DNA of 64,000 nt from an uncultured Clostridia bacterium (GTDB taxonomy: Bacteria > Bacillota > Clostridia > Christensenellales > DTU072): NCBI GenBank assembly GCA_944349655.1, contig CALVNL010000001.1, positions 51,809-115,808 of the forward strand. Reading direction: 5' to 3'. The notes beneath the pieces are model-generated. The model was not told the origin of the DNA and searched no databases. It was given only the letters and a program-made list of their open reading frames with translations. The translations under genes and the position numbers were made by a program. Positions 5,146 to 59,531 of the stretch are shown piece by piece; position 1 is the stretch's first letter, and each line of letters opens with the position of its first letter.

Positions 5146-5161
5146 TGGCGTAAATTTTGTC

Positions 5162-5188
5162 ATAGAGTTTTTTCGGCTTTCATAAATT
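5162..5188 (+). promoter_or_regulatory. sigma-E-like (mother-cell) promoter candidate for spoIVA
   Basis: ATA (5162-5164), a 16-nt spacer, then CATAAATT (5181-5188). This resembles the Bacillus sigma-E consensus ATA-16/18-CATAcanT. spoIVA is sigma-E dependent in B. subtilis. Confidence 0.45.
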
Positions 5189-5217: not shown

Positions 5218-6693
5218 ATGTTGAATTACGATATATACGACGATATCGCTCTCCGAACCGGAGGCGATATTTACTTAGGAGTGGTAGGCCCCGTCCGTAC
5301 GGGGAAGTCCACTTTTATCAAGAAATTTATGGAATTGCTGGTACTGGACAGGGTGGAGGATAAAAACAAGCTTTCCAGAATGATAGACGAATTGCCGCAG
5401 TCTGCAGACGGAAAGACCATTATGACAACCGAGCCGAAGTTCGTACCCAACGAAGCGGCTGAAGTGACTTTTGACAAAATGACCGCAAACGTAAGGCTTA
5501 TCGATTGCGTAGGCTACCTTATAGAGGACGCTTTGGGGCATAAGGAAGGGGATAAACCCCGTCTGGTCAAAACTCCCTGGTCGGAAAAAGAGATACCTTT
5601 CCAGGAAGCTGCGGAAATCGGAACCGACAGAGTCATCAAGGAACATTCCACCGTGGGAATTCTGGTAACGACCGACGGAACCATTACGGACATAAATCGT
5701 ACCAAGTATGTAGAAAGCGAAGAAAAAGTAGTAAGCGCGCTTAAAGAAAGCGGCAAGCCTTTTGTAATCGTGCTTAATTCCCGCAATCCCGAAGAAACCG
5801 ACGCCGTCAGACTCGGAGAAAGTCTTGCAGAACGTTACGGAGTACCCGTGACTGTGTGCGACGTAATGAATTTGACAAAGGAAAAAATAACGGAAATAAT
5901 GCAAAATATTCTGTTTGAATTCCCGATAACCGCCGTCAATATTTCCATACCCAAATGGATGCGTTCTTTCGGAAGCGGAGAAAAAATAATAGCCGACATC
6001 CTTTCCGTCATCAGGGAAGGCGCTAAAAGTATGACCAAGATGAGAGACTACGCTTTACTCGAAGAAATATTCGCCGACAACGAATACATCGAAAGCGACG
6101 TAGAGGTCTTCAGCCAGCCGTCAACGGGCGTTATCGAATTAAAATGCAAAGCAAAAGACGGACTGTACTTCAAAGTACTCAGCGCGGAATGCAATAACAA
6201 CGTGGACGACGAATACAAATTGCTCACTTTCGTAAAGAAACTCAGCAAATCCTATGCCGATTACGAAGGTATAAGGAAAGCAATGGAATCGGTAAAAACC
6301 GACGGTTACGGAGTGGTAAATCCCGGCATAGAAGATATGGAACTGGAAGAACCCGAACTTGTAAAGAAAGGAAATCAATACGGCGTAAAACTCAAGGCCA
6401 GCGCTCCGTCTTTCCATATTATGCGAGTTGACGTGGAAACCGAAATCAGCCCCATAATCGGCAGCGAACAGCAGAGCGAGGATCTCGTAAAATATCTTTT
6501 AAGCGAGTTCGAAACCAATAAAAGCGGTATCTGGGAAACCAATATGTTCGGGAAAAGCCTCAATGCTCTCGTAAAAGAAGATCTTAACAACAAACTTTCC
6601 AGTATGCCCGGCGACACGCGCAACAAACTTCGCAGGACTATATCGAGAATAGTAAACGAAGGGAAAGGCGGTGTACTCTGTATTCTCTTATAA
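5218..6693 (+). CDS. spoIVA: stage IV sporulation protein A (spore-coat basement-layer ATPase)
   Basis: 491 aa. N-terminal Walker A GVVGPVRTGKSTFIKKFM. Full-length collinearity with SpoIVA. Confidence 0.95.
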   Translation: MLNYDIYDDIALRTGGDIYLGVVGPVRTGKSTFIKKFMELLVLDRVEDKNKLSRMIDELPQSADGKTIMTTEPKFVPNEAAEVTFDKMTANVRLIDCVGYLIEDALGHKEGDKPRLVKTPWSEKEIPFQEAAEIGTDRVIKEHSTVGILVTTDGTITDINRTKYVESEEKVVSALKESGKPFVIVLNSRNPEETDAVRLGESLAERYGVPVTVCDVMNLTKEKITEIMQNILFEFPITAVNISIPKWMRSFGSGEKIIADILSVIREGAKSMTKMRDYALLEEIFADNEYIESDVEVFSQPSTGVIELKCKAKDGLYFKVLSAECNNNVDDEYKLLTFVKKLSKSYADYEGIRKAMESVKTDGYGVVNPGIEDMELEEPELVKKGNQYGVKLKASAPSFHIMRVDVETEISPIIGSEQQSEDLVKYLLSEFETNKSGIWETNMFGKSLNALVKEDLNNKLSSMPGDTRNKLRRTISRIVNEGKGGVLCILL

Positions 6694-6724: not shown

Positions 6725-6756
6725 AATATCCGTTTTCTTGCAAAACGGATATTTTT
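6725..6756 (+). terminator. intrinsic terminator after spoIVA
   Basis: 12-bp stem aatatccgtttt / aaaacggatatt, 5-nt loop, T-run. Confidence 0.8.
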
Positions 6757-6785
6757 ATGTTAATCTATTCAAGAGGAAATATAAA

Positions 6786-7877
6786 ATGAAAGATTACAAT
6801 AAAGCCGTACTCGTTAAGGTTTCAGAGGAAAAGGACGATACCGAGTCGCTGGACGAACTAGCATTACTTGCGTCAACGGCAGGATACGAAACCGTAGCTC
6901 GACTTTTTCAACGAAAGGACAGTCCCGACAAGTCGTACTACCTCGGGAAAGGAAAACTTGCCGAGTTAAAAGAAGCCTTAGACGCGCTGGAAGCAGGGAC
7001 GGTCATATTCGACAACGAAATCAGCGGAAGCCAGTTCAATAATCTGGAGAAGTATCTCGACGCAACGGTGTTGGACAGGGCGACCGTTATTTTGGAAATT
7101 TTTGCTAAACACGCCACAACCGCCGAAGGAAAACTCCAGGTGGAACTTGCCCGTAAAAAACACAGTTTGCCCAGAGTCTTGGGACAAGGAGCGGTATTAA
7201 GCAGACAAGGCGGCGGCGGAGCCGGGGGCGGCGGCGCAAGAAGAGGCGCCGGAGAACAGCAGCTTGAGCTGGATAAACGTACCATAAGAAACGAAATACG
7301 CCTTTTAGAAGAACGTATAGATAAATTAACGGCGGAAAGACGTCTTCGCAGAAAAAAACGACAAAACAGTAAAATTAAGTCAGTTAGTATCGTAGGATAC
7401 ACAAATGCGGGTAAATCCACCCTTATGAACAGGCTTACCAAAGCGGGAATCCCTGAAGAAGACAAGTTGTTTGCAACCCTCGATACCACCACCCGTAAAT
7501 TATGGGTAGGACCGGGAAAAGAATTTGTTTTGACCGATACGGTCGGGTTTATTTCCGGTTTACCGCACGAATTCGTTAAAGCGTTTGCCAGTACTTTAGA
7601 GGAGACGCGTTATTCCGATCTTATTCTGCTCGTTCACGATTGTTCGGGGAAAGACTTTGCTTTTCAATACGAAGTAGTCAACAGCGTGTTGGACTCGATA
7701 GGAGCGGCGGACGTCCCGAAAATCGTCGTGCTGAACAAAACCGACGTCGCGGAAAAAATTCCTTTCCTCGAGGGCGATAACGTAGTACCGATAAGCGCCA
7801 AAACGGGAAAGGGTATCGATTTACTCAAAGAAAAAATTACCGAAACGCTTTTCGGGGAAAAAGTAGTTTGGGAATAA
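6786..7877 (+). CDS. hflX: GTPase HflX
   Basis: G1 GYTNAGKSTLMN, G3 DTVGF, G4 NKTD, and the Gly-rich N-domain loop GGGGAGGGGARRGAGE. I prefer ATG 6786 over the track start at 6738 because AGAGGA lies 8 nt upstream and the spoIVA terminator ends at 6756. Confidence 0.9.
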   Translation: MKDYNKAVLVKVSEEKDDTESLDELALLASTAGYETVARLFQRKDSPDKSYYLGKGKLAELKEALDALEAGTVIFDNEISGSQFNNLEKYLDATVLDRATVILEIFAKHATTAEGKLQVELARKKHSLPRVLGQGAVLSRQGGGGAGGGGARRGAGEQQLELDKRTIRNEIRLLEERIDKLTAERRLRRKKRQNSKIKSVSIVGYTNAGKSTLMNRLTKAGIPEEDKLFATLDTTTRKLWVGPGKEFVLTDTVGFISGLPHEFVKAFASTLEETRYSDLILLVHDCSGKDFAFQYEVVNSVLDSIGAADVPKIVVLNKTDVAEKIPFLEGDNVVPISAKTGKGIDLLKEKITETLFGEKVVWE

Positions 7878-7888
7878 GATTAACGGTT

Positions 7889-8329
7889 TCAAAGTTCTTT
7901 TACCATTTGCAGATAATCGAGTTTCTCGTAACCGCATTTTTCATAGAGTTTCATTGCCGAAATATTTACAGGAGTCAGTTCCAGTCTTATTCTGACGGTT
8001 TCGGGAAGGATTAGTTTTTCCAATTCCGAAAGAACCCTTTTGCCTAAACCTTTGCCTCTGAATTCTTGTTTGAGATAAATTTCCTCTATCCAGGCGGTTA
8101 TTCCGCCCGCTTCGTTGGAATAGGTATAGGAAAGAAGACAGTAACCCGCGTTTTGTCCGTCGGCGACGATGAAATATCCTTCGGCATAAGGATTGTCGGT
8201 AAGGCAAAGTTCGTATGTCTTCAGAAAATTGTTTTCTTCTACGTTATGGGTCACGGCGTCGGAAGAATAAAAGTCTTTACACATTTCGACGAAATCGTTT
8301 CTTTCGTTCGGATTGAATTTTTTAAGCAT
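7889..8329 (-). CDS. GNAT-family N-acetyltransferase
   Basis: 146 aa. Acetyl-CoA motif A QEFRGKGLGKRVL. Convergent with hflX with an 11-nt gap. Confidence 0.8.
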   Translation of the reverse strand: MLKKFNPNERNDFVEMCKDFYSSDAVTHNVEENNFLKTYELCLTDNPYAEGYFIVADGQNAGYCLLSYTYSNEAGGITAWIEEIYLKQEFRGKGLGKRVLSELEKLILPETVRIRLELTPVNISAMKLYEKCGYEKLDYLQMVKEL

Positions 8330-8351
8330 AATCGTTACTCCTATACCGACG

Positions 8352-8380
8352 ATTGTATATTATTTCCGAATAAAAGTCAA
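8352..8380 (-). promoter_or_regulatory. sigma-A promoter for the GNAT gene
   Basis: On the minus strand: TTGACT (8380-8375), 17 nt, TACAAT (8357-8352). It is followed by a leader carrying an AGGAG SD. Confidence 0.55.
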
Positions 8381-8430
8381 ATTAAGGTTATCGATACGGT
8401 ATTAAACGATTTATTAAGACAAAAAAGAAC

Positions 8431-8459
8431 TTGCTTTTTATAAAAAAAACGTTTATAAT
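8431..8459 (+). promoter_or_regulatory. sigma-A promoter for the SRP RNA
   Basis: TTGCTT (8431-8436), 17 nt, TATAAT (8454-8459). The predicted transcription start (TSS) at about 8466 coincides with the start of the RNA homology. Confidence 0.6.
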
Positions 8460-8464
8460 TATTT

Positions 8465-8726
8465 CCGATGCTAGACGGGGAGCTAGCGGTGCCCTGTAAC
8501 TCGCAATCCGCTATAGCGAGGTCGAACGCCCACCGAGGTATATTCTATGGAAAGCCGATGGGAATAAGGGATGTTGATAATAAGGTCTCGTACAATTTCG
8601 TCTTGTGAACCGTGTCAGAGCTTGACCGCAGCAGCACTAAGCAAGTAACGGGATGTGTTACGAGGAAGCTTTAGGGGAGTTACCTGTTTTCATGCCGATT
8701 CGGTAGTTTATATCGGAGTGGGTGCA
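8465..8726 (+). ncRNA. ffs: signal recognition particle RNA, long Bacillus-type (scRNA with Alu domain)
   Basis: GACGGGGAGCTAGCGGTGCCCTGTAACTCGCAATCCGCTATAGCGAGGTCGAA closely matches the 5' domain of B. subtilis scRNA as I recall it. The domain IV region GAACCGTGTCAGAGC...GCAGCAGCACTAAG lies at about 8608-8645. The 5' CCGAT pairs with the 3' ATCGG, and a T-run follows at 8727-8734. End coordinates are approximate. Confidence 0.85.
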
Positions 8727-8771
8727 TTTTTTTTATTTTTGAAAAAACATTTTTTTGGTCTTTTAAGCCTG

Positions 8772-8801
8772 TTGACTTTTGCATATAATTATTTGTATAA
8801 T
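8772..8801 (+). promoter_or_regulatory. sigma-A promoter for pepF
   Basis: TTGACT (8772-8777), 18 nt, TATAAT (8796-8801). Confidence 0.55.
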
Positions 8802-8828
8802 ATTTTATAATTTTAATTCGGAGTTGTT

Positions 8829-10601
8829 ATGAATAAAGTTCTGTCGAGAGATTCTCTGCCCGATAGCAGAAAATGGAAACCTGAAGATATTTTGGCCGAA
8901 AGCGAAATCGAAAGATATTTTTCCGACGTAAGGGCGGGAATAACTGAAATCAGCGCATTTAAGGACAATCTCACACCTGCAAATACCTTGGAATGTTTGC
9001 TTACTTTGAGCAAAATTTCTTATAAATTAACTAAACTTTACGTTTATCTCAATCTGAAAAGCGATGAAGACAAGTCGGTTACCAGATATCAGGAACTTTG
9101 CGAAAAAGTATCGATGTTGGCTTCCGATTTTTCCGAAGCCTGTTCCTTTATACGTCCCACCGTTGCGAAATTCCCGGCGGCGGAACTGAAAAAAATGAGA
9201 GACAGCGAAAGTTTCGAATATTTCAGTATGGATTTAGACGGAATAATCCGCGACAAGAAGCGTTTACTCGGGAGGAAGGAAGAAGCGTTGCTTTCCATGG
9301 TCGGCACCTTTTCAGACGATTTCCGTACGATTTTCGGAATGTTCGACAACGTGGATATAAAAATGGGGGAGATAGAACTCAACGGGACGAAAGTTCCTTT
9401 AACGCACGGGACTTATTCCGTAGCATTGCAAAACCCCGACAAGAATGTCCGCAAACAGGCTTACGAGTCTATGTTCGACGCCTATATTTCCAATATAAAT
9501 ACCATTGCCGCAAATTATGCGGGAAACGTGAAAAGGGATTACTTTTACGCTAAAGTCAGAAAACATCCTACGTGTCTTGCCAAAGCGCTTTATGCGGAAA
9601 ACATACCCGTTAAAGTTTACGACAACCTCATTCAGGTTGTTAAAAAATACACGCCTTTAATGCACGAATATATCGCTTTAAGGAAAAAGGCTCTCGATCT
9701 TCCCGAACTCAATATGTACGACCTTTACGTTCCCATAGTCAAGGAAGACGCCGTTCTTACCGATTTCGACGAAGCGTACGGTATCGTATGCGAAGCCCTT
9801 GCGCCTTTGGGGGAGGAATATGTTTCTGTTCTGAAACGAGCCGTAAAGGAAGGTTGGATAGACGTGGAAGAGACGCCCAACAAACGCAGCGGAGCATATT
9901 CCTGGGGTGTTTACGGCACGCATCCGTTCGTTTTGTTGAATCACAAGGGCACCACCCACGACGTTTTTACCATCGCTCACGAAATGGGACACGCCATGCA
10001 TTCCTATTATTCCAATAAAAATCAGTGTTATGAAAAAGCCGATTATGTGATTTTCGTGGCGGAGATAGCCAGCACCGTTAACGAGGTTCTGCTTATAAAA
10101 CATCTTCTGAAAAACGCTTCCGGCGATAAAAGAAAGTACCTTTTGAGTTACTATATCGATATGATCCGCACCACTCTTTTCCGTCAGACTATGTTTGCGG
10201 AATTTGAAAAGTTTGCTCACGGAGTTATTGAAAGCGGAGAACCTTTAAGCGCCGAAAAAATGACCTCTTTCTACCGTAACCTTAATGCGGAATATTACGG
10301 AGACGCCGTAATTTCCGATGAAAGAATAGGTTATGAATGGGCAAGGATACCGCATTTTTACAGAGATTTTTATGTTTACAAATATTCTACGGGAATAATT
10401 TGCGCCATAAACATTGCAAATAAAATTTTATCGGAGGATAATTTCGTAGAAAAATATAAGATGTTTTTAAGTTCGGGTGGTAGTATGTATCCTATGGAGA
10501 TTCTGTCGCTTACCGACCTCGACCTTACTAAAAAAGCGCCTTTTGAAGCGGCTATGAAGGAGTTCGGAAAAATTCTGAAAGAATTGTCTAAACTGATATG
10601 A
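8829..10601 (+). CDS. pepF: oligoendopeptidase F (M3B metallopeptidase)
   Basis: 590 aa. Zinc motif HEMGHAMH. PepF-like throughout its length. Confidence 0.9.
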   Translation: MNKVLSRDSLPDSRKWKPEDILAESEIERYFSDVRAGITEISAFKDNLTPANTLECLLTLSKISYKLTKLYVYLNLKSDEDKSVTRYQELCEKVSMLASDFSEACSFIRPTVAKFPAAELKKMRDSESFEYFSMDLDGIIRDKKRLLGRKEEALLSMVGTFSDDFRTIFGMFDNVDIKMGEIELNGTKVPLTHGTYSVALQNPDKNVRKQAYESMFDAYISNINTIAANYAGNVKRDYFYAKVRKHPTCLAKALYAENIPVKVYDNLIQVVKKYTPLMHEYIALRKKALDLPELNMYDLYVPIVKEDAVLTDFDEAYGIVCEALAPLGEEYVSVLKRAVKEGWIDVEETPNKRSGAYSWGVYGTHPFVLLNHKGTTHDVFTIAHEMGHAMHSYYSNKNQCYEKADYVIFVAEIASTVNEVLLIKHLLKNASGDKRKYLLSYYIDMIRTTLFRQTMFAEFEKFAHGVIESGEPLSAEKMTSFYRNLNAEYYGDAVISDERIGYEWARIPHFYRDFYVYKYSTGIICAINIANKILSEDNFVEKYKMFLSSGGSMYPMEILSLTDLDLTKKAPFEAAMKEFGKILKELSKLI

Positions 10602-11464
10602 AAGAAATATATAAGAAAAGTTTTGCCTTAATCTTATTCTTAATTTTTGCCTTGACCGTCTGTTTAACGGCAATTCCCTCTTTCCCGTTTGCGGAAGCGG
10701 CTTCGGAGGATTACGGAATATACGGAGAAACCGATGGGATACCGGGAGTAGGGTACGATCTCGACGGATACGACGTTGCTTTTTCCTACCATAACTACAC
10801 TTTGCGAAACAGCGGAGTTTATTTTGCCTTTGTGGTAACTTTGGATAAGAATTTTCACAGAACCATTTCCAAAACAGAAAACAACGTGGCATACGATTGT
10901 CTTTTAATGGATAAGATAAAGCTGATTTTTTCATCGTTGGGGTATACGGTGGTAAGCGACGATTTCAACGGTCAGCTTTACGCTTATCTTTCTTACGATA
11001 CGATGACGGATTATTATATCGCAAACGGGCTTGACGGTTACGAAGTATCCGAGTCGGAAGCTACGGAAGACAAAGGTTTTCTCTTCACCGATTATTATAC
11101 CGAAACCGATACCGTGTTTTCCCTTATCGGGGCAGGCGACAACGTTATTGACGTTTGCGTAAATTTATGTAAGGAAGCCGGCGCGGCAGAAGACAAGATT
11201 TTACTTCGTTACGTTTACGGTACCCCTTACAAAATAATTACCAGCGACGCCGATTCGGTAACCTACAATTCGCAAAGAAGTCTGTACTTGCACAGTTTCG
11301 ATATGACGGTAGCCGATAAGGACAGACTTATACATTTTACTCAACACGCCCCTAACCCCGTCGGGTGGTACGTACTTGCCGTAATTATAGCCATTCCGGT
11401 CATTGCCGTACCTTTGACGATTATGATTATCAGGCGTAAGAAGAAACAGGAGGGAATACAATAA
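10598..11464 (+). CDS. hypothetical exported protein with N-terminal signal/anchor and C-terminal TM anchor
   Basis: 288 aa. Hydrophobic N-terminus ALILFLIFALTVCLTAIPSFPFAEA. C-terminal TM WYVLAVIIAIPVIAVPLTIMII followed by RRKKKQ. The start overlaps the pepF stop by 4 nt (ATGA) and the stop overlaps the dnaB start by 1 nt (TAATG). I recognise no family. Confidence 0.6.
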   Translation: MKEIYKKSFALILFLIFALTVCLTAIPSFPFAEAASEDYGIYGETDGIPGVGYDLDGYDVAFSYHNYTLRNSGVYFAFVVTLDKNFHRTISKTENNVAYDCLLMDKIKLIFSSLGYTVVSDDFNGQLYAYLSYDTMTDYYIANGLDGYEVSESEATEDKGFLFTDYYTETDTVFSLIGAGDNVIDVCVNLCKEAGAAEDKILLRYVYGTPYKIITSDADSVTYNSQRSLYLHSFDMTVADKDRLIHFTQHAPNPVGWYVLAVIIAIPVIAVPLTIMIIRRKKKQEGIQ

Positions 11465-16846: not shown

Positions 16847-16874
16847 ACATAAATACTTCTCCCTTCATAAGATG
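16847..16874 (+). promoter_or_regulatory. mother-cell-type (sigma-K/sigma-E-like) promoter candidate
   Basis: AC (16847-16848), 17 nt, CATAAGATG (16866-16874), compared with the Bacillus sigma-K consensus AC-17-CATAnnnTA. An AGGGAG SD lies at 16891-16896. The evidence is weak. Confidence 0.3.
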
Positions 16875-16903
16875 TATTAGATATAAAAAAAGGGAGATAT
16901 GTT

Positions 16904-17506
16904 ATGGCTTGCAATATTAAAAACTGTAATACTCCCGCAATATGTTGTACCGGCAATAACGCATGCGAAAAAACTTGCATAGAGGCTACTAAAGTTTTTG
17001 ACGCCTGTATGCAACAGCAGAGTATCAATACTACTCTCAACGTAACTTTTTCCGGAAGCACCTCGGGCTACGATACCGTAGTCGGGGTCAGAAGCTCGGG
17101 GGAGGCCGTGATAAGCGACCTGGTGATTACCCCGATAGCAGGAAGCGTTTGTTCGAGAGTAAGTTATACTTTGACGGTGCCGATTGTCGTTGTGGCAGCA
17201 AATTCAGCGGGAACACAAATCACCGGTACATCTTCTATGACGTTCAGCCAGGACATTGTCATGAAGGTACCTTCCGACGGAGTGATTGCTCCGTTCATTA
17301 AGGCGACGGCAGTTATCGTCGGGTTACAGAATTCCATATCCGGGAATCAGGTTACAACTAATGCTTGTGTCACCATTATTACAAAAGTAGTGGCAGACGT
17401 AATACTGGTAGTCTCGGCTTACGGATATCCGGTTTTGCCGCCTTGTCAGGAATATACGCAAGACGTTTGCTCCGGCGTGTTCAGTACCCCGGTATTTCCG
17501 CGGTAG
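16904..17506 (+). CDS. Cys-rich, Thr/Val/Ser-rich hypothetical protein (candidate spore-surface structural protein)
   Basis: 200 aa. Eight Cys lie in the first 35 residues (MACNIKNCNTPAICCTGNNACEKTCIEATKVFDAC), then a long beta-strand-like V/T/S/I-rich body, then a C-terminal PPCQEYTQDVC. Good SD, with its own terminator. Confidence 0.6.
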   Translation: MACNIKNCNTPAICCTGNNACEKTCIEATKVFDACMQQQSINTTLNVTFSGSTSGYDTVVGVRSSGEAVISDLVITPIAGSVCSRVSYTLTVPIVVVAANSAGTQITGTSSMTFSQDIVMKVPSDGVIAPFIKATAVIVGLQNSISGNQVTTNACVTIITKVVADVILVVSAYGYPVLPPCQEYTQDVCSGVFSTPVFPR

Positions 17507-17545
17507 GAGCAGTAAAATACAAAGGACGCGGTTTTAAGATGACTG

Positions 17546-17580
17546 AGGCTTACGCTCAATGCGTAAGCCTTTGGTGTTTT
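17546..17580 (+). terminator. intrinsic terminator after the Cys-rich gene
   Basis: Perfect 10-bp stem aggcttacgc / gcgtaagcct, loop tcaat, then ttggtgtttt. Confidence 0.75.
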
Positions 17581-17591
17581 GGGCTATTATG

Positions 17592-17620
17592 TTGCTTTCG
17601 GGAAGCTGATATGGTATCAT
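17592..17620 (+). promoter_or_regulatory. sigma-A promoter (extended -10) abutting the metallophosphoesterase ATG
   Basis: TTGCTT (17592-17597), 17 nt, TGgTATCAT (17612-17620). The ATG at 17627 is 6 nt downstream of the -10 and there is no SD. Confidence 0.45.
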
Positions 17621-17626
17621 ATCGAT

Positions 17627-18319
17627 ATGAAAGTATATGCGATAAGCGATTTTCACCTGTCCAACGGCACAGATAAACCTATGGACGTTTTCGGCGAAAA
17701 ATGGGTAGGACATTGGAATAAAATATCCGACGAGTGGAAAAAGACGATTACCGACGAAGACATAGTGCTGTCCGCCGGAGATACCTCGTGGGCAATGAAT
17801 CTTTCCGAAGCTCTTCCGGATCTCGCCGCAATAGACGCTTTGCCCGGGAGAAAATTTATAATCCGCGGAAACCACGATTATTGGTGGAGCAGCTATAAAA
17901 AAATCAACGACTGCGGCTTCGAAAGTATAAGTTTTATTCAGAACAACGCGTTTACCGCAGGCGATTACGTGATTTGCGGGACGAGAGGTTGGACCGTTTC
18001 GGATACGGAATTGCCGGAAGACGAGAAAAAAATATACGCACGCGAATTGCTCAGGTTGGAGATGACCTTGAAAGAAGCAGAAAAATCGGCTTCTACAGGC
18101 AAGAAGATTTTGCTTCTTATGCATTATCCGCCTTTTAATTCCCGTTTCGAGGATTCGGATTTTACGAAAGTTATCGACAGGTTCAAGGTGGATAAGGCAA
18201 TTTACGGACATCTACACGGCACTCGTTCGAGGTATGCTGCCGAAATAAAGAAAGGAAACACCGAGTACGTTTTGACGAGTTGCGATTTTCTGAATTTCGT
18301 TCCTCTCAGGATTTATTGA
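17627..18319 (+). CDS. metallophosphoesterase family protein
   Basis: Classical motifs: SDFH, AGDTSW, RGNHDYWW, LLMHYPP, YGHLHG. I prefer ATG 17627 because the track start at 17579 lies inside the upstream terminator. Confidence 0.75.
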   Translation: MKVYAISDFHLSNGTDKPMDVFGEKWVGHWNKISDEWKKTITDEDIVLSAGDTSWAMNLSEALPDLAAIDALPGRKFIIRGNHDYWWSSYKKINDCGFESISFIQNNAFTAGDYVICGTRGWTVSDTELPEDEKKIYARELLRLEMTLKEAEKSASTGKKILLLMHYPPFNSRFEDSDFTKVIDRFKVDKAIYGHLHGTRSRYAAEIKKGNTEYVLTSCDFLNFVPLRIY

Positions 18320-26147: not shown

Positions 26148-27237
26148 ATTTCACGAACGGTATCTTCTTCCGATAACTACTGTAACACTTGCCGCAATAG
26201 GTATGGTAATGATTTATTCGGCAAGCAGTTATTCTGCCGAAATAAATCTGAACGATCCGTTCTTTTATGTAAAGAAACAAGCCGTCGCTTTTGCGGCGGG
26301 ACTGATACTTATGGTGGTTGCGGGAAGAATAAAACAGGAATGGCTTCATAAGGCGCGGATACCGATACTGATAGCGAGTATGGTTTTGCTCGGATTGGTT
26401 TTCGTTCCGGGACTCGGGGTGGAAAGTTACGGCGCAACCAGGTGGTTGAATCTCGGTTTTACCACCATTCAACCGTCAGAACTGTCGAAATTCGGTCTGA
26501 TGATTTTTCTTGCCTCCTATATGTCGGAATATCCTCCCGTAAAGCTTGGGAATATGATTATTCCGGTTTTATGCTCATTGATTATCGCAGGGCTGATTAT
26601 GGCGGAACCGAATATGAGTATAACCGTCTGCGTGGCGGGCGCGGTACTTATATTGACTTTCGTTGCAGGGCTGCCGAAAAAATATTTTATACCAGTTGCG
26701 GCGGTGCTTGCGATAGCCGTTCCGGTACTGATAATTATGGAACCGTACAGGGTAAAAAGACTGCTTGCTTTCCTCGATCCGTGGCAAAACCCGAAAGGCG
26801 AAGGATATCAGCTTATTCAATCCTACTACGCGCTCGGAAACGGAGGTTTGTTCGGAGTAGGACTGTTTGCCAGTCGTCAGAAATATCTTTTTTTGCCTTT
26901 TGCGGAATCTGATTTTATTTTTTCGGTTATCGCGGAAGAAACTGGAGTGGTCGGTTGCGTATTCGTTATAGCCATTTTTGCCCTGTACATATTCGTGGGG
27001 ATAAGAACGGCTATGAACGCTAAAAACCGATTTTACAGTTTGCTCTGCGCCGGTATAATTTCGGTTACCGCATTGCAAGTGATTATAAACATGGCTGTGG
27101 TAACGGGTTCCATTCCGCCTACGGGCGTTCCTTTGCCGCTGATTAGCGCCGGGGGAACGGGTCTTATGACTTATATGTTCGTTTCGGGATTGGTTTATAA
27201 CGTAGCGCGCGTAACCAACGGGGAAATTAAACCATAA
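26131..27237 (+). CDS. ftsW: SEDS-family peptidoglycan glycosyltransferase FtsW/SpoVE
   Basis: 368 aa polytopic. PSELSKF, AESDFIFSVIAEE, PLPLISAGGT. Confidence 0.9.
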   Translation: MRSKLKFHERYLLPITTVTLAAIGMVMIYSASSYSAEINLNDPFFYVKKQAVAFAAGLILMVVAGRIKQEWLHKARIPILIASMVLLGLVFVPGLGVESYGATRWLNLGFTTIQPSELSKFGLMIFLASYMSEYPPVKLGNMIIPVLCSLIIAGLIMAEPNMSITVCVAGAVLILTFVAGLPKKYFIPVAAVLAIAVPVLIIMEPYRVKRLLAFLDPWQNPKGEGYQLIQSYYALGNGGLFGVGLFASRQKYLFLPFAESDFIFSVIAEETGVVGCVFVIAIFALYIFVGIRTAMNAKNRFYSLLCAGIISVTALQVIINMAVVTGSIPPTGVPLPLISAGGTGLMTYMFVSGLVYNVARVTNGEIKP

Positions 27238-27309
27238 TATGTATCGATAAGGTTTTTTTAGGGAGCTAAACCCCCGAAGAACTTCGTCAAAAGCAAGCAA
27301 GGGGGGCAG

Positions 27310-35825: not shown

Positions 35826-35852
35826 ACTTTTTCCTTCCGGTTACATATACTG
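35826..35852 (+). promoter_or_regulatory. mother-cell-type promoter candidate for sigK
   Basis: AC (35826-35827), 16 nt, CATATACTG (35844-35852), compared with AC-16/17-CATAnnnTA (sigma-K) and CATAcanT (sigma-E). Confidence 0.4.
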
Positions 35853-35874: not shown

Positions 35875-36579
35875 TTGCTTTTAGAAGGATTTTTTACTCT
35901 TTTCAGCAATTTGTTGTTATTCACTTCGGGGATAGACGGCGGAAACTCTTTTCCTCATCCGTTAAGTCCCGAAAAGGAAAGGGAATACCTTTACAAATTC
36001 AAAAAAGAAGGGGATCTGGAAGCTAGAAACATTCTTATAAAACACAATCTTCGTCTGGTAGTGTTTATTGCGAAAAAATACGTTAATTATCCCGACAACG
36101 ACGAACTTATCAGTATCGGCACGATAGGACTTATGAAAGCCATCAATTCCTTCGATCCCGACAAGGGGTCGTTGCTTGCCACTTTCGCTTCCCGTTGTAT
36201 CGAAAACGAAATTCTGATGACTATGCGCAGTTACAAGAAAAGAGCGGGCGATATGTCGATATACGAAAGTATCGGAAACGACAAGAACGGCAACGAAATG
36301 CCGATTATCGACATACTGACTACCGACGAAGAAAGCGTTTACTCTCATATCGACTCGGAATTTATGAAAAAAACGCTAAAGGATTTTACTTCGAGATATT
36401 TAAGCGAAAGGGAAAGGGTAATTATAAATTTACGGTTCGGGCTGGAGGGCGGAGTGCCGCTTACGCAACAAAAAGTAGCGGACAGGCTGGGGATTTCGAG
36501 ATCCTACATATCCAGAATAGAAAAAAAGTCGCTGTCTAAACTCCGTGCGGCTTTCGAAAAGGAAAAAATTCAGGTATAA
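35875..36579 (+). CDS. sigK: sporulation sigma factor SigK (pro-sigma-K), uninterrupted
   Basis: TTG start. Pro-sequence ...NSFPHPLSPEKEREYL parallels B. subtilis ...NAFPQPLSSSEEKKYL. Also NLRLVVFIAKKY and CIENEILM. One continuous 234-aa ORF. Confidence 0.9.
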   Translation: MLLEGFFTLFSNLLLFTSGIDGGNSFPHPLSPEKEREYLYKFKKEGDLEARNILIKHNLRLVVFIAKKYVNYPDNDELISIGTIGLMKAINSFDPDKGSLLATFASRCIENEILMTMRSYKKRAGDMSIYESIGNDKNGNEMPIIDILTTDEESVYSHIDSEFMKKTLKDFTSRYLSERERVIINLRFGLEGGVPLTQQKVADRLGISRSYISRIEKKSLSKLRAAFEKEKIQV

Positions 36580-36942: not shown

Positions 36943-36999
36943 GTATATTTTTCCCGTGCGGGTAAATAATTCCTGTAAATTATAACCGTGAGGATTATT

Positions 37000-39900
37000 A
37001 TGCCCGTTCTGATAATATTGCTTGTGATAATATTGTTGTGTGCTTTTCTCGCAATGCGGAAAGAAAGGACTGACGTTGCCTATAACCGTATGAGAGAAAG
37101 CGACGAAGAGTCGCTGGGAGCTTTATTGACGGACGAATGCCGTCAGATGCGAAATTACGGAGAAGGGAGAGGAATAAAGCCCGTATTCCTGATTTCGGCC
37201 ATCAAAAAAGCCAATAAAATGATAAACGCCAAAATACGGCGGGAAGAACCGTTAAGCGAAGCCGAAAAGTGGTTTTATGAAAATTATTATCTGGTTTACA
37301 GGTACGTTTATTCGCCAAAAGATGACCTGAAAACGCTTCCGCACGTGGACGGAATTCCTCGAATAGTTAAAATTGCGGAGTATATAGTCAACAACTCGTT
37401 AAACAATTTAACCGAAACGGTAGTAAGAAACGCTTTGGAAAAAATAAAGAGTACGGTAAATCTTACTTATGCGGAATTGAAAGAATTTAACAACGCTTTG
37501 AGCTACGCTGCATTGGAACAGGCTTATATTCTGGCAAAAAGGCTGTTAAAACAGGATTATTACCGAAAGAAAGCTTATAAAGTAGGGTTTCGCGAAAAAT
37601 ATTTGAAAAGCGACGTCTACACTTATTATCTGTTCAGAACGGGAACGGTAAACGGCGCGATAGCAGAAAAGCTCAATCGTCTCGGCATAACCGAAAAAAA
37701 CGCTCTTATAAATTTTAACGGAATAACCGCATATAACGGAGCAATGGCAAAGACCGTATTCGGGTGCCTTCGCAAAATAAACGACTATGTACCTTTGCAT
37801 CTCGGACTGAGGTATCTTGCCTCATACAGAATACTCTCCCGTAAAACCGACCCTGAAAAACTTTCCTTACGCACCCGATTGTCTTATTTCGAAAAATTGG
37901 AAAAAACGGCTGAAAGCACTAAGGTAAGCGAGGCTTACGCCGCCGAAAAACTCTTAGAATACGCCGATAAAAAAGACGTTGACGTATCGGTAGTGCTGTA
38001 TGACGGGATAAAAGGATTAAAAAAATATATCAAAAGGGGAACGGTTTCCGGAAAAACCGTTTTTAACGGTAAACTCAGGCAGACGGCTTACGTCCTTTCA
38101 ATAGTTTTAACGTCGTTGATTTCAAGCGTTATCGCAGGTATTTACGTTCATCCTGCGGTAGGAGTATTCTCGTTTATACCGCTTACGCTCGTTGCGGAAA
38201 ATATAGTGAATTACCTTTTGTCCCATACTGCCGACGATTTTCGCACCCCGCAAATGAATTTTGAAAAAGTGCCGACCGAACATAAAATAATGGTGGTTGT
38301 AAGCGAATTTATCTCGGGATTAGAGCATTTTAAGGAGAGTTTGCGGCATCTGGAGGAGTTAAGCGCGTCGAACGGTGAGGAAAACGTACAGGTGGTTATG
38401 CTTGCCGATATAAAAGGAGGAAAAACGCCTTATTCCGAAGCGGACAGGGAAATACTCGAATTTCTTTCAGACTACCGCCCCGAGGAGAAAATAAACGTAT
38501 TTATACGCAAAAAAGAGTTTATTAACGGAAAATATCAGGGGAAAGAAAGGAAACGCGGTGCGCTCGACGCATTGAATAAATTACTGGTTACGGGCAACGA
38601 AGAGGATTTTGCTTACGTTTACGACCGCAATTACGCCATTCCCGAATATATAGTCGCATTGGACGCCGATAACCGTCTTTTACCGGGTGAAGTGAGAGAA
38701 ATGGCGAATATGATGGCGCACCCTTATAATAAAAAATACGATTTACTAGCTTTTCACAGTAAATATGATCTATATTCGCTGAAAACCGCTTATTCCAAAA
38801 GATTTTCAGAAGAGTCCGGGTGCGAAGTATATCCTTCTTTTACCACGCTTTTCGTAAAACTTTTCCGCAGGGACGTTTATTGCGGGAAAGGAATCTACAG
38901 ACTCAGGAATTTTTACAACAAAACCGCTCAGGTTTTTCCTTCGGGAAAAATACTGTCGCACGACATAATAGAAGGAAGCGTGACGGTAACGGGAGGAGGA
39001 AGCACGGTTTTCGAGGAAGCACCGAAAGGATTTTTGTCAGACAGAGAACGTAGAAAAAGATGGTTGCGAGGCGACGTACAATTACTTCCTTTTGCCGACG
39101 GACGGTGGAAAAACGACGCGTCAAACAAGGTGAGAACGGAGATAGAACCGCTTTACGGATATTTAATGCTAAAAAACGCTTTTGCACCGTTTAAGGAATT
39201 AAGTTTGCTGTTTTTATTGATTTTTTCACTTATAATAGGGCAAACTACCGCTATTGTTTTTTCCGCGGCCCTTTTCATAGCGCCTTACCTTGTGAACCAA
39301 ATAAAGATTTTGCGGGGACTTGCAGGCGGCGTATTACCGTATTATCTTATAAAAGACACTTTGAAAAACGTCTTTTTGGCGGCAGAAGACTTTTTTATGC
39401 TCGGTTACTATGCCTTCGACAATTCTCTTGCCGTGATTACCACGCTCGGGAGAATGTTGAGCGGTAAAAAATTATTGGAATGGAAAACTTATTACAGTTC
39501 TCAATCCGCTGCGGAAATGAGTTCTTATGCGAGGGAATTTACTTTAACTACCGTATTGCTTGCCGTTATATCGATAGTATGGTTGATTTTTGATATCAAA
39601 GGGCTTTATTTATGCTTTTATACCCTTATAACTCCGCTCGTTTATTCGGAATTGTATCTTTTGTCGACTACTTCGTCGGAAAGAAAAACTCTTTCCGAAA
39701 AGAAGACGGAAGACCTTAAGCGATATGCTCAAAGGACTTATAAATTCTTTTCCTATATGCAGAGCGAAGGTTATCTTATAGCCGATAATTTGCAGATTAA
39801 GCCTTATAAAGGCTGCGCTTCGACTACTTCTCCAACCAATATAGGTTTCAGCCTTTTAGCGGAAATTTGCGGCTGTAAACTGGGATTCGTGACGGCAAAC

Positions 39901-42900
39901 GAAGCGTGCCACAATATCAATATGATACTCGACGAAGTAAAAAAACTTCCGCTATGGAAGGGGAATTTATACAATTGGTATAACCTCAATACCAAAAAGC
40001 CGGTCAGCAATTTCATTTCCAGCGTGGACAGTGGAAATTTTGTGGCTTGCTTGTATGCTGTGAAGGAGTTTTTCAAGGAAAACTACGATAAAATAGGGGA
40101 ATTAAAAGCCGACCTTATGATAGTAAACACCGATTTGAAAGCCTTATACGACGAAAACGAAAATCTGTTCTATATAGGTTTCGACGGAGAGAAATACGTC
40201 GGACATTACGACCTGATGAATTCCGAAGCAAGGATATTAAGCACGCTTTATATCGCGCAAAGCCGCGATACGGAACACTTCCGATGCTTGCAAAGGGATT
40301 ACGCTTCCATAGGCGGCAATGTATTGCTGAGCTGGAGCGGGACGGCTTTCGAAGCGTTGATGCCCGATATCTTTTTCCCGACGCCCGAAAAATCGGTATT
40401 CGGAAACACCTCGCTTCGCACGGCAAAAATTCAAAGCCAAACAAAATACTGTTCGCTGTGGGGGATAAGCGAAAGCGGATATTATGCTTTCGACGAAGAG
40501 CTGCGATACCAGTACTACGCTTTCGGAATTAACAAGTTAGCTTTACGCAACGAAAAAAACAAAGGGGTTATAAGTCCCTACGCATCGGCTTTGTGTATCA
40601 ACGAGTTGCCCGAAGAAGTTTACGATAATTTGCATCTTGCCGAACAGAACGGACTATTTCAGGAATACGGTTTTTACGAGAGCGTCGATTGCGAGGGGAA
40701 GCAACGTGTAGTGGCTTCCTATATGGCGCATCATCAAGGAATGTTGCTTGCTTCATTAACTAATTTTCTCGCAGAAAATTATATACAAAAATTGATGTGT
40801 AAAAATCTGAAATTGTCCTCTGCGCTAACAATTTACAACGAAAATGTGCCTCGTGTAGCTTTTGGTTTAAAAAATAATGAAAAGCGTAAAAATATACCTT
40901 TACAGAAAGAGGATTATTATAAAATCAATACTAAAATAGAACAATACTTCCAAACGGGAGTGTTATCGGATACACAATATTCTGTAATACTCAATGCTTT
41001 TGGAGGAGGTTTAAGTAAATATTACGACGTAATTATCAATCGTTTTTTTGGAGTTTATGAAGAAAACGACGGTGCCTTTTTTATGGTTAAAGATAAGGAC
41101 GGTAAGTGGAATTCTCCCACGTTTTTACCTTTCGGCGGGAATACGGAGGACTATGTTTTTTCGATATCGCAGTCTGAAATAATTCACGAAAATATAAAGT
41201 CAAGACTAAAGCAGGAAGTAACCTTACTGGACGGTATGAGCGGCGAAATAAGAAAACTTACCTCGCCCAAAGGAGAAGTTTGTTTCTTTTTACCCCTTGC
41301 ATTGAATACTCTCAACGGGTTCCGTTCACATCCTGCCTTCAACGGTTTGTTTTGCGAAACCTACGTTAAAGACGACGTACTTTACATTAAACGTAGAAAA
41401 ACCGAAAGTGTCGGAAAGGATTTTTATCTCGGCGTAAAGGTTATCGGCGTTGAGAATTTGCAATGGGAAACCAACGCGGGAAATTATCTCGGAAGAGCGT
41501 CTTCTTTAGCCGAAGCCGAGATTCTTTCGGGCAGTAAGAAGAGATATCCGTCGCTTGGAGACGTTCTCAATCCTTGTATAGGTTTCAAAGGACGCACCGA
41601 GGGGGAGTGTCAGGTTGCAATAGTCTTCGGCGAGGAGGAAAACGAATGCGTCGACGCCTTGAAATCGTTGCCCGACGATATGTATTCTTATGCCGTTAAT
41701 TTTATGCATAAAAACGTAATCAATAAAAATACGGGAGACGTTTTGTCGGAACTTCTTTACGTTCCTTACAGACACGATTTGTTGGACGAACTCGTCACTT
41801 CCGGAAAAAAGGATTTATTTGCGCAAAATACTTCATTCCGTAAGCTCATTGTGTATTATTTTAACGAAAGCGGAAAAGGTTTTACGGATTTTCTGAAAGT
41901 TGCTTTGGATCTGAACGTGTTGAGGCAGGACGTTTGTTACGCCGTCGTGGTAGGTAAAGGCCTTCCCGACTCGGTAAGAGCTCACGTCGAGTCTCATCTT
42001 AAAGCCTTCCTCGTTAAAAATTTCCTCATAGTAGGAGAAGATTATCCGCTTCTGAAATACGCTTTTCTGACTTTCAATTCCGATATGACTTTTAATCGGA
42101 GCAAATTTTCTTTCGGGAAGGATTTTCTTTTGAAAAACGAAGAAAGAGCTTGCGTTTTAAGCGAAGACGATTTTTCCGAACAGTTGCACGGAAAAGAATT
42201 ATTCTTTTCGGGCAAAGGCGGTTTCGACGAAAACGACGATTACGTTTCGGACGCGGAATACGACGGTCTGCCTTATTCCGACGTGATTTGTTCCGAACAC
42301 GGCGGAATGGTGATAACCGATAACGGCGGAGGATTTTATTATTTCGGAAATTCTCGCGAAAACAAGATGACGAGATTCGATAACGATTACGTAACAGATT
42401 GCGGAGGGGAATATATTTATCTCAGAACGGACGGGGAGTTGTACCGACTCGGCGGCAGAGGCAAGGACCGTTATTCGGTTTTCGGCAAAGGCGAATATAA
42501 ATTCGTCAGAAAAAACCACCGCTTTTCTGCCGTTTTGAAATACAATACCTTGTGCGAAGGCAGAGCAAGACTTATCAAAGCGGAAATAAACGTAAGCGGA
42601 GACGGACATTTTGAATTGTGTTACGGATTTTTCCCTGCGCTTAATTGGGTTTATGAGCCTGATTTCATATATTTCAAGCAGGAAAACGAGGTTATCACGG
42701 TGCACAACGTCAGGAACGGACAAACGCTTTACGTTAAAATGATGACGACAAAACCCGAAAATCTGTCTTTCATCAATCCGAAAGAAAGGCAACCTTATTT
42801 TGAATATTTCGGCGAAGGCAAAGAAGAAATATATATTCTTTCCACGCAGGATTACGGAGTGTTGCATTCCGTGACGAGGGAAAACGTTTCAATGCTTGCC

Positions 42901-59072: not shown

Positions 59073-59531
59073 TTGAACGAAGTAAGCAAAAGAGCCGAAG
59101 AGCTTTTCGCTCCGATCTTAAATAAAAACGGATACGAAATAGTGGAAATCCGTTTCGATAAACAATTCGGGGAGGATACTCTGACGGTTTTCGTTTACAA
59201 AAAAGGCGGTATTACGCTGGAGGATTGCGAAAAAATCAACGAATTACTGGATCCCGTTCTCGACGAAAACGATCTTACCGACGGGAAACCTTATACCTTT
59301 AACGTATCCAGTCCGGGATTGGATCGCCCTGTCGTAACGGACGACGATTTTCGTCGCAGTCTTGACACGGAATTGGAAGTTATTTTTCTAAAGCCTAAAG
59401 GAAAAGCCTTAAAGGCAAGCGGTACGCTGGTTGCTTACGACGACGAGTCGCTTACTTTGGTTTCCAAGGACAAAACCACTGTTTATAAAAGATCTGACAT
59501 TCAGACCGTAAGACCATATATTAAATTTTAA
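59073..59531 (+). CDS. rimP: ribosome maturation factor RimP
   Basis: TTG start with an AAGGAGG SD. VSSPGLDRP motif. Conserved position before nusA. Confidence 0.85.
   Translation: MNEVSKRAEELFAPILNKNGYEIVEIRFDKQFGEDTLTVFVYKKGGITLEDCEKINELLDPVLDENDLTDGKPYTFNVSSPGLDRPVVTDDDFRRSLDTELEVIFLKPKGKALKASGTLVAYDDESLTLVSKDKTTVYKRSDIQTVRPYIKF

Follow-up and report, generated by a model that had tools for sequence, protein, structure and literature searches.

We examined a gene in a 64,000-nucleotide (nt) stretch of DNA from an uncultured Clostridia bacterium of the order Christensenellales (contig CALVNL010000001.1); the whole of this stretch is called the window. The gene lies on the + strand and, with its flanking signals, occupies positions 16847-17581. 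It is predicted to encode a protein of 200 amino acids (aa) with similarity to CsxA, the exosporium basal-layer protein of Clostridium sporogenes and C. botulinum (PMC7333573; bioRxiv 10.64898/2026.09.03.749163). The features that we recognize at this locus are as follows.

16847-16848, + strand: AC, the -35 element of a putative sigK-type mother-cell promoter, 17 nt 5' of the CATA box.
16866-16874, + strand: -10 box CATAAGATG of the CATAnnnT class, from the sequence and from the alignment of homologous upstream regions.
16892-16896, + strand: Shine-Dalgarno sequence GGGAG, 7 nt from the ATG; homologues have GGAGG or GGGAG at the same position.
16904-17506, + strand: coding sequence with an ATG start for a predicted compact CsxA-family protein of 200 aa, from the reading frame, the substitution rates and hhalign.
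16904-16969, + strand: N-terminal tail (residues 1-22), predicted to be flexible, with the lineage-specific Cys 3, 8, 14 and 15 and the conserved Cys21, from the AlphaFold2 predicted local distance difference test (pLDDT) and the conservation of Cys columns.
16964-17008, + strand: hallmark motif CEKTCIEATKVFDAC (residues 21-35), the counterpart of CsxA EICCIQVPKVFDQC, from a BLASTP high-scoring segment to CsxA residues 29-48 and from hhalign.
16970-17416, + strand: all-beta core (residues 23-171) with seven long predicted strands, from AlphaFold2 pLDDT; the strand order is that of the CsxA model (P0291).
17366-17500, + strand: most conserved block, C155...IITKVVADVILVVSAYGYPVLPPCQEYTQDVCSGVFSTPVFP, with Cys155, Cys181 and Cys189; the counterpart of CsxA IIIKCEIVVQLMVPAYGYCPVPEEC..DPCKEF..LPTLYP.
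17545-17581, + strand: intrinsic terminator found as a hairpin in the sequence, an 11-bp stem followed by a T-rich tail, which closes a monocistronic unit.

A first-pass annotation of this DNA had described the open reading frame (ORF) at 16904-17506 as a monocistronic gene with its own Shine-Dalgarno sequence and terminator, and we found each of these elements in place. Comparison of the 200-aa ORF with its orthologues gave ratios of nonsynonymous to synonymous substitution rates (dN/dS) of 0.07-0.17, showing that this is a genuine protein-coding gene under purifying selection. The GC-rich hairpin of the terminator (17545-17571) has 11 pairs, six of them GC. When 58 intergenic sequences from homologous loci were read by eye, most had an equivalent GC-rich hairpin and T-run 3' of the gene, and a separate sigA-type promoter before the next gene, which encodes a metallophosphoesterase. 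The terminator and the separate promoter indicate that the CsxA-like gene is monocistronic, and on these grounds we rejected co-transcription with the metallophosphoesterase gene. The window also contains the sporulation genes that had been listed for it: spoIVA, spoIIGA, sigE, sigG and a putative sigK. The last of these is the third sigma gene, and we took it as sigK by its position, its length and a sigK-like upstream motif; Pfam gives generic sigma-70 domains only.

The protein was first described as having eight Cys in its first 35 residues. Recounting gave seven (residues 3, 8, 14, 15, 21, 25 and 35), with 11 in the whole protein. The description of the remainder was accurate, in that V, T, S, I and A make up 60% of residues 36-175 and the sequence PPCQEYTQDVC is present at the C-terminus. 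There is no N-terminal signal-like segment in the 200-aa protein, in agreement with the absence of a signal peptide noted earlier. The accompanying statement that the protein has no transmembrane segment overlooked a hydrophobic stretch at residues 154-172 (Kyte-Doolittle 19-residue mean of 2.15) and nevertheless appears to be right. We read this stretch as a core strand rather than a membrane helix because K161 and D165 lie inside it and it forms the most conserved predicted beta-strand.

The all-beta fold suggested by the composition was also seen in an AlphaFold2 model of the ORF built with the family alignment. Residues 23-171 form an all-beta core in which pLDDT exceeds 90 at most positions, and strands are predicted at residues 23-46, 56-64/69-77, 84-100, 105-120, 131-146 and 149-171. 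The tails at both ends are disordered in the model. Residues 1-18 have pLDDT below 50, and the low values after residue 175 indicate that the C-terminal tail is probably flexible. A Foldseek search of this model against the PDB returned nothing at E <= 0.001, and all TM-scores were below 0.27. As a control, we repeated the search with a model of genuine CsxA, and it also found nothing. Thus, the negative result for the ORF is uninformative and reflects the lack of a solved relative, not a missing fold family. Sequence searches of Pfam, NCBIfam and the PDB with the ORF and with its relatives (41 + 150) gave chance-level matches only, namely DUF3943 (E 0.024), halo_surf_dom (E 0.035), a molybdenum-pterin-binding protein (E 0.13) and parasporin-2 (2ztb, E 0.65).

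The protein is not an orphan, as had been supposed. A single-sequence search found relatives in 117 clusters and an exhaustive phmmer search against 50%-identity representatives found 158, while a profile search showed that at least 1048 protein clusters carry the family. When one genome from each GTDB species was scanned for the motif, 575 loci were confirmed, so that at least 575 species genomes contain the gene, and each locus that we fetched has one copy. Nearly all hosts are metagenome-assembled genomes (MAGs) from gut and rumen samples that are labelled Christensenellaceae, Christensenella, Christensenellales or 'Clostridia bacterium', and the window itself is 98% identical to a contig labelled 'uncultured Christensenella sp.'. 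All named copies are annotated as 'hypothetical protein', and no listed family member has a precomputed Pfam domain or an NCBIfam assignment.

Two regions define this family. The consensus of the N-terminal motif is C-E-K-x-C-I-E-x-x-K-V-F-D-A-C, and that of the C-terminal block is C-V-T-I-I-T-K-V-V-x-x-V-x-L-L-V-P-S-Y-G-Y-x-x-L-P-P-C-Q-E-Y-T-Q-D-V-C-S-G-x-F-x-x-P-x-(F/Y)-P. In the family alignment (A1) V31, F32, D33 and C35 (VFDAC), C155, C189 and P199 are invariant, as are G174 and Y175 within the SYGY motif of the consensus. Six Cys are conserved: C21 in 85% of members, C25 in 88%, C35 in 98%, C155 in 100%, C181 in 93% and C189 in 100%. By contrast, the N-terminal Cys cluster that had stood out at first is lineage-specific and does not define the family, since C3, C8, C14 and C15 vary across it; the CC pair C14-C15, which would be expected of an Ena-type N-terminal connector, occurs in only about 30% of members.

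It was P0209, a remote relative from Serpentinicella alkaliphila (CP058648.1, locus L089), that pointed to CsxA: its gene lies near F-ENA genes, and F-Anchor-3 in the F-ENA literature has been described with a 'CsxA-like domain' (PMC12357932). For C. sporogenes CsxA we used the sequence of 299 aa with 25 Cys given in the supplement of PMC4942563. BLASTP of the ORF against this sequence gave two short collinear segments only (E 0.001 and 0.006), which are not convincing alone. Comparison of A1 with the single CsxA sequence by hhalign gave a probability of 95.3% and an E-value of 2.2e-8 over 180 columns, and comparison with an alignment of 33 CsxA homologues (A3; PF27077 'CsxA') gave 98.6% and 9.8e-16 over 183 columns, in one collinear alignment that begins at the N-terminal motif and reaches the C-terminal tail. 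The conserved positions of the family align with the invariant columns of CsxA. With a hidden Markov model (HMM) that we built from CsxA, the window protein scored 22.6 bits and its sister clades (N-terminus MSFSNN) up to 58.8 bits; in the reciprocal search the family HMM matched all 87 CsxA sequences. P0209 bridges the two families, as it aligns with A1 (probability 98.1%, E 9e-14) and its tail is recognized by the CsxA profile (probability 96.8%). In the precomputed domain annotation PF27077 is present on every listed CsxA homologue and on no family member, and the copy of Pfam that we scanned holds no PF27077, so that CsxA itself had no family match in it. This link between the family and CsxA is previously unrecognised.

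The similarity between the two proteins extends over both motifs and the core. The N-terminal motif reads CIQVPKVFDQC in CsxA and CIEATKVFDAC in the ORF, so that C-I-x-x-x-K-V-F-D-x-C is common to both. The second shared pattern is (V/I)P-x-Y-G-Y...C...C..F...P.(F/Y)P, and here the CsxA block IIIKCEIVVQLMVPAYGYCPVPEEC..DPCKEF..LPTLYP corresponds to IITKVVADVILVVSAYGYPVLPPCQEYTQDVCSGVFSTPVFP of the ORF. The AlphaFold2 model of CsxA (P0291) has strands at residues 38-56, 78-98, 106-125, 128-148, 173-189 and 209-233, and when the secondary-structure maps of the two models were compared in the hhalign register the long strands followed the same order. Both proteins have flexible termini that bear Cys, both lack a signal peptide, and both are encoded by monocistronic genes with a promoter of the form AC-N17-CATAnnnT(A).

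There are also clear differences. Family members are about 200-220 aa long (median about 210), whereas CsxA homologues are 250-300 aa (median 257). The median number of Cys is 9 in the family (range 4-19; 11 in the window protein) compared with 17 in the 87 CsxA homologues, and C. sporogenes CsxA itself has 25, which places the window protein below the 17-25 Cys of CsxA. Beyond the shared strands, two Cys-rich loops and a long acidic tail are seen in the AlphaFold2 model of CsxA; the family lacks both of these Cys-rich inserts, one after strand 1 and one between the last strands, as well as the acidic C-terminal extension. The hosts differ, with the family in Christensenellales and CsxA homologues in Clostridium and its relatives (Clostridiaceae). 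Their genomic settings differ too, as the family gene is linked to the metallophosphoesterase gene and csxA lies near genes for a collagen-like protein and glycosyltransferases. We found no shared synteny with csxA, whose divergent partner encodes a 609-aa protein without a Pfam match.

The first-pass annotation had also pointed to an AC-17-element upstream of the gene resembling Bacillus sigK/sigE promoters. This element is present (AC at 16847-16848, 17 nt, then CATAAGATG at 16866-16874) and is kept across homologues. From each of 84 homologues we took the preceding 200 nt; 80 of these upstream sequences were distinct, and they were aligned on the nearest CATAnnnT. As controls we used 464 other genes from the same loci that are preceded by a Shine-Dalgarno sequence. 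A CATAnnnT lies within 100 nt upstream of 95% of the family genes compared with 9.5% of the controls, and at 24-46 nt from the ATG in 91% compared with 2.8%. The full two-box mother-cell promoter was found within 100 nt upstream of 75% of family genes and 1.1% of controls. Elsewhere on the + strand of the window, the other well-placed matches to the motif lie just 5' of spoIVA and of the putative sigK gene, which served as calibration within the window. The spoIVA gene (5218-6693) is preceded by CATAGAG-N13-CATAAATT, that is ATA-N16-CATA, at 5161-5188 (+), and putative sigK (35875-36579) by AC-N16-CATATACT at 35826-35851 (+). Two more + strand matches (27214-27240 and 59497-59522) are inside coding sequence and look like chance.

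The two boxes help to tell which sigma factor may read the gene. The -35 consensus is AC for sigK and ATA for sigE, and a CATA-type -10 is common to both (Saujet et al., PMC3789822). Reading the alignment columns by eye, we found AC at exactly 17 nt from CATAnnnT in 21 of 22 sequences from the window's clade and its neighbours (N-termini MAC.., MPC.. and MSFSNN..), with which a regular-expression count of the AC-N17 form in 26-28% of all 80 upstream sequences agrees. Judged by its motif, the AC-N17-CATAnnnT of the window's clade is the sigK pattern. The C. botulinum csxA gene (locus L090, JSCF01000066.1) has a perfect sigK-type promoter, AC-N17-CATACTATA, at 5925-5952. The annotated csxA start at L090 is 21 nt too early (MFLLYEKEDIY...), and a Shine-Dalgarno sequence precedes the conserved MAI... 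start at 6022. In the largest clade of the family (N-terminus MSFFCN..) the promoter reads gtgTCATAaa-N13-gCATATATTgaaaTAGAAa, with an ATA-type -35 and 15-nt spacing, one base shorter than that of the window's spoIVA promoter. It resembles the sigE type and could be read by either sigE or sigK. The sequence just 3' of the -10 box is conserved as well (window 16875-16890): the window's clade has TGTAtTAGAtAtAA, the MSFFCN clade TTGAAATAGAAAG and C. botulinum csxA TATTGAGATAAAA. Transcription could start in this region, or a regulator of the mother cell, for example SpoIIID or GerE, could bind there.

Taken together, the CsxA homology and the conserved sigK/sigE-type promoter support the central proposal of the first-pass annotation, namely an uncharacterised, Cys-containing structural protein of the spore surface that is expressed in the mother cell. 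We put the probability at roughly 65% that the 200-aa protein is a compact, divergent member of the CsxA superfamily that is made in the mother cell, self-assembles and forms part of a disulfide-stabilised outer spore layer. CsxA is required for the exosporium and, when produced in Escherichia coli, self-assembles into its native hexagonal lattice with reducible cross-links (PMC7333573). In a 2026 preprint its AlphaFold3 model is a strand-exchanged trimer that is assigned to the SPOCS/DUF3794 fold class and has unpaired Cys on the legs of a tripod, and SPOCS members are described as trimeric 'tripod' hubs in spore envelopes (bioRxiv 10.64898/2026.09.03.749163). From the homology to CsxA we infer the oligomeric state, lattice formation, disulfide cross-linking and spore location of the CsxA-like protein.

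On this basis, the sequence of events might be as follows. Late in sporulation the mother-cell RNA polymerase, in this organism with sigma-K reading AC-N17-CATAnnnT, would transcribe the monocistronic gene, and the protein, having no signal peptide, would be made in the mother-cell cytoplasm. Residues 23-171 would fold into an elongated CsxA-type beta domain that oligomerises, probably as a strand-exchanged trimer like the one AlphaFold3 predicts for CsxA. The oligomers would then tile an ordered layer round the forespore, either an outer coat or an exosporium-like layer, in which neighbouring subunits may be locked by disulfides between the six conserved Cys at both ends of the beta core. Three of these (Cys21, Cys25 and Cys35) lie at the N-terminal end; Cys155 opens the last strand, and the flexible C-terminal tail carries Cys181 and Cys189.

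Several observations weigh against a CsxA-type layer protein. The window protein reaches just 22.6 bits with our CsxA HMM and the precomputed Pfam column is empty for all family members, so that the homology rests on profile-profile comparison and on intermediate clades. Cys content far below that of CsxA and the absence of the Cys-rich inserts mean that the cross-linking capacity and the type of lattice may differ. Neither the collagen-like BclA genes nor a glycosyltransferase gene was seen beside the family gene in the flanks examined. Neither the ORF model nor the CsxA model has a solved relative in the PDB, so that the fold class is a predicted one, and all hosts are uncultured. The -35 of the largest clade is ATA-type and sigE-like, not AC; expression would then come earlier, which could suit a morphogenetic protein rather than an outermost structural one.

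A bolder form of the proposal is possible, and we offer it tentatively. The compact CsxA-like protein might be the principal self-assembling shell protein of Christensenellales spores or, alternatively, the missing SipL/SpoVID/CotE-type coat organiser of this order.

Taken by itself, the role of an organiser seems unlikely to us, although it fares best among the alternatives to a bulk lattice protein. The protein would then be a coat-morphogenetic SPOCS adaptor, similar to CotE, SipL or BMQ_0737, that recruits outer layers onto the SpoIVA basement layer. The occurrence of the gene in at least 575 species genomes, its single copy per fetched locus and its position within 400 nt of a metallophosphoesterase gene at 74 of the 84 loci that have at least 1 kb of downstream sequence, even where the orientation is flipped, suggest that it belongs to the sporulation core and is not an accessory gene. 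The ATA-type -35 of the largest clade resembles that of the window's spoIVA promoter, and the moderate Cys content recalls the 2026 preprint, in which Cys-poor SPOCS proteins act as organisers (bioRxiv 10.64898/2026.09.03.749163). Fifteen of 150 representatives (P0118-P0266) weakly match NF052457, the 'BMQ_0737 family morphogenetic spore coat protein', over residues ~29-170. The best of these matches is 21 bits (E 9.5e-5) against a curated cut-off of 71 bits, and the window protein itself gave no match. BMQ_0737 of Bacillus megaterium is located in the outermost spore layers (PMC4656864), and these recurrent sub-threshold matches in distant members hint that BMQ_0737 may share a superfamily with CsxA. 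Against an organiser, CsxA is the one significant homologue whose role is known, and that role is structural; the six conserved Cys are terminal, as cross-linking residues would be; the gene in the window has a promoter of the sigK type, that is late, like that of csxA; and the protein has no LysM or other adaptor domain.

The family would inherit the fold-class assignment of CsxA (SPOCS/DUF3794, with CsxC, CdeC, CotE and SipL) by homology. None of 191 family sequences (41 + 150) matched PF12673 (SPOCS) at E up to 1. PF12673 also fails to match CsxA itself, so this test does not discriminate. A link to SPOCS through CsxC, which has a weak PF12673 match, was tried with hhalign and was negative both for the family (probability 1.3%) and for CsxA.

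Considerably less probable is a part in spore appendages, whether as their anchor or base plate or as one of their subunits. The same domain stands at the end of a DUF11-repeat protein of Serpentinicella that is encoded ~6 kb from F-ENA genes, and a fusion with a beta-propeller (P0225) exists. In addition, F-Anchor-3 of C. aceticum, which combines DUF4183, DUF11 repeats and a 'CsxA-like domain', has been proposed to insert into the CsxA exosporium lattice (PMC12357932). The Christensenellales protein, however, is a stand-alone domain of 200-220 aa with no stalk, and no DUF4183 or DUF3992 genes were present in the flanks examined. The ORF and its relatives had no Pfam match to PF13799 (F-ENA, DUF4183) or PF13157 (Ena, DUF3992), and no Ena chain was among the listed Foldseek matches in the PDB.

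It is very improbable that the protein has no connection to spores, for example as a cytoplasmic beta-rich protein or an aerolysin-like toxin behind a fortuitous promoter-like motif. The type species Christensenella minuta is described as non-spore-forming, and the marginal parasporin-2 profile match (2ztb, E 0.65) and low-probability Foldseek matches to pore formers could suggest a toxin. However, these matches do not rise above chance, and similar spurious ones were obtained with the CsxA model. The two-box promoter is far more frequent upstream of family genes than of controls (75% compared with 1.1%), the CsxA homology is significant, the window carries sporulation genes, and some Christensenellales MAGs are predicted to be sporulators (PMC12536801).

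Least credible of all is membership of the ExsY/CotY/CotZ or Ena (DUF3992) families, which the first-pass annotation had drawn on as analogues: the likeness is a general one, Cys-bearing terminal peptides round a beta-rich body, but none of the 191 family sequences matched either family at E up to 1, no Ena structure was among the listed Foldseek matches, and the predicted core has seven long strands in ~150 residues compared with the Ena jellyroll of roughly 100. CotZ-family Pfam models matched neither the ORF (E up to 10) nor any of 190 relatives (E up to 1). What connects the family to ExsY/CotY of the Bacillus exosporium and crust and to the endospore appendage subunits Ena1/2/3 and F-ENA is functional analogy only, through Cys cross-linking of self-assembling spore-surface proteins, and ExsY and CsxA have been described as unrelated (PMC7333573).

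If the CsxA-like protein is indeed the principal shell protein, many members of a heritable, health-associated gut group would surround their spores with a crystalline layer of the CsxA type, made from a minimal subunit of 200 aa. The homology in itself carries the CsxA class of spore-shell proteins well beyond Clostridium, into an important uncultured gut order. The relationship offers a name and a testable function for more than 1000 'hypothetical protein' clusters of gut and rumen Christensenellales that Pfam and NCBIfam models at present miss. A minimal CsxA core of two motifs, six Cys and seven strands emerges as well, a natural construct for structural work and for self-assembling protein materials. 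With its conserved mother-cell promoter, the gene could be a handy marker of sporulation capacity and spore-mediated transmission in uncultured Christensenellales.

We made further observations on relatives of the protein and on neighbouring genes. P0209 is encoded in L089 (CP058648.1), where the features described here lie at 1-2194 and 8001-11261, and is 1086 aa long, with DUF11/CLIPPER repeats followed by the C-terminal CsxA-like domain. Its gene lies ~6 kb from a gene for a 119-aa F-ENA subunit (PF13799) and from one for an F-ENA/CLIPPER/F-ENA protein of more than 1000 aa, which is like F-Anchor-3. From this arrangement, P0209 may represent a second kind of stalk protein, anchored in the lattice and encoded at an appendage locus. 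P0225 is a fusion of a beta-propeller with the CsxA-like domain, and P0266 contains seven copies of the C-terminal motif.

Directly downstream of the CsxA-like gene, the metallophosphoesterase gene with its promoter spans 17592-18319 (+) and matches Pfam Metallophos; its true start is probably the ATG at 17627 rather than the listed TTG at 17579. Its own promoter is of the sigA type with an extended -10 (TTGCTT at 17592-17597, 17 nt, and TGgTATCAT at 17612-17620). The -10 ends 6 nt 5' of the ATG, and there is no Shine-Dalgarno sequence. Most homologous loci share this layout, which points to a leaderless metallophosphoesterase mRNA. Near spoIVA, the gene that follows it (6738-7877, +) was considered as a SipL-like neighbour and proved to encode an HflX-type GTPase and not a SipL- or SpoVID-like SPOCS/LysM protein; the window shows no partner for SpoIVA. 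Directly 3' of the putative sigK gene there is a giant ORF of 2469 aa (36988-44397, +), which contains GH94 (cellobiose/cyclic-glucan phosphorylase-like) catalytic and supersandwich domains together with glucoamylase-like and glycosyltransferase-2-like regions.

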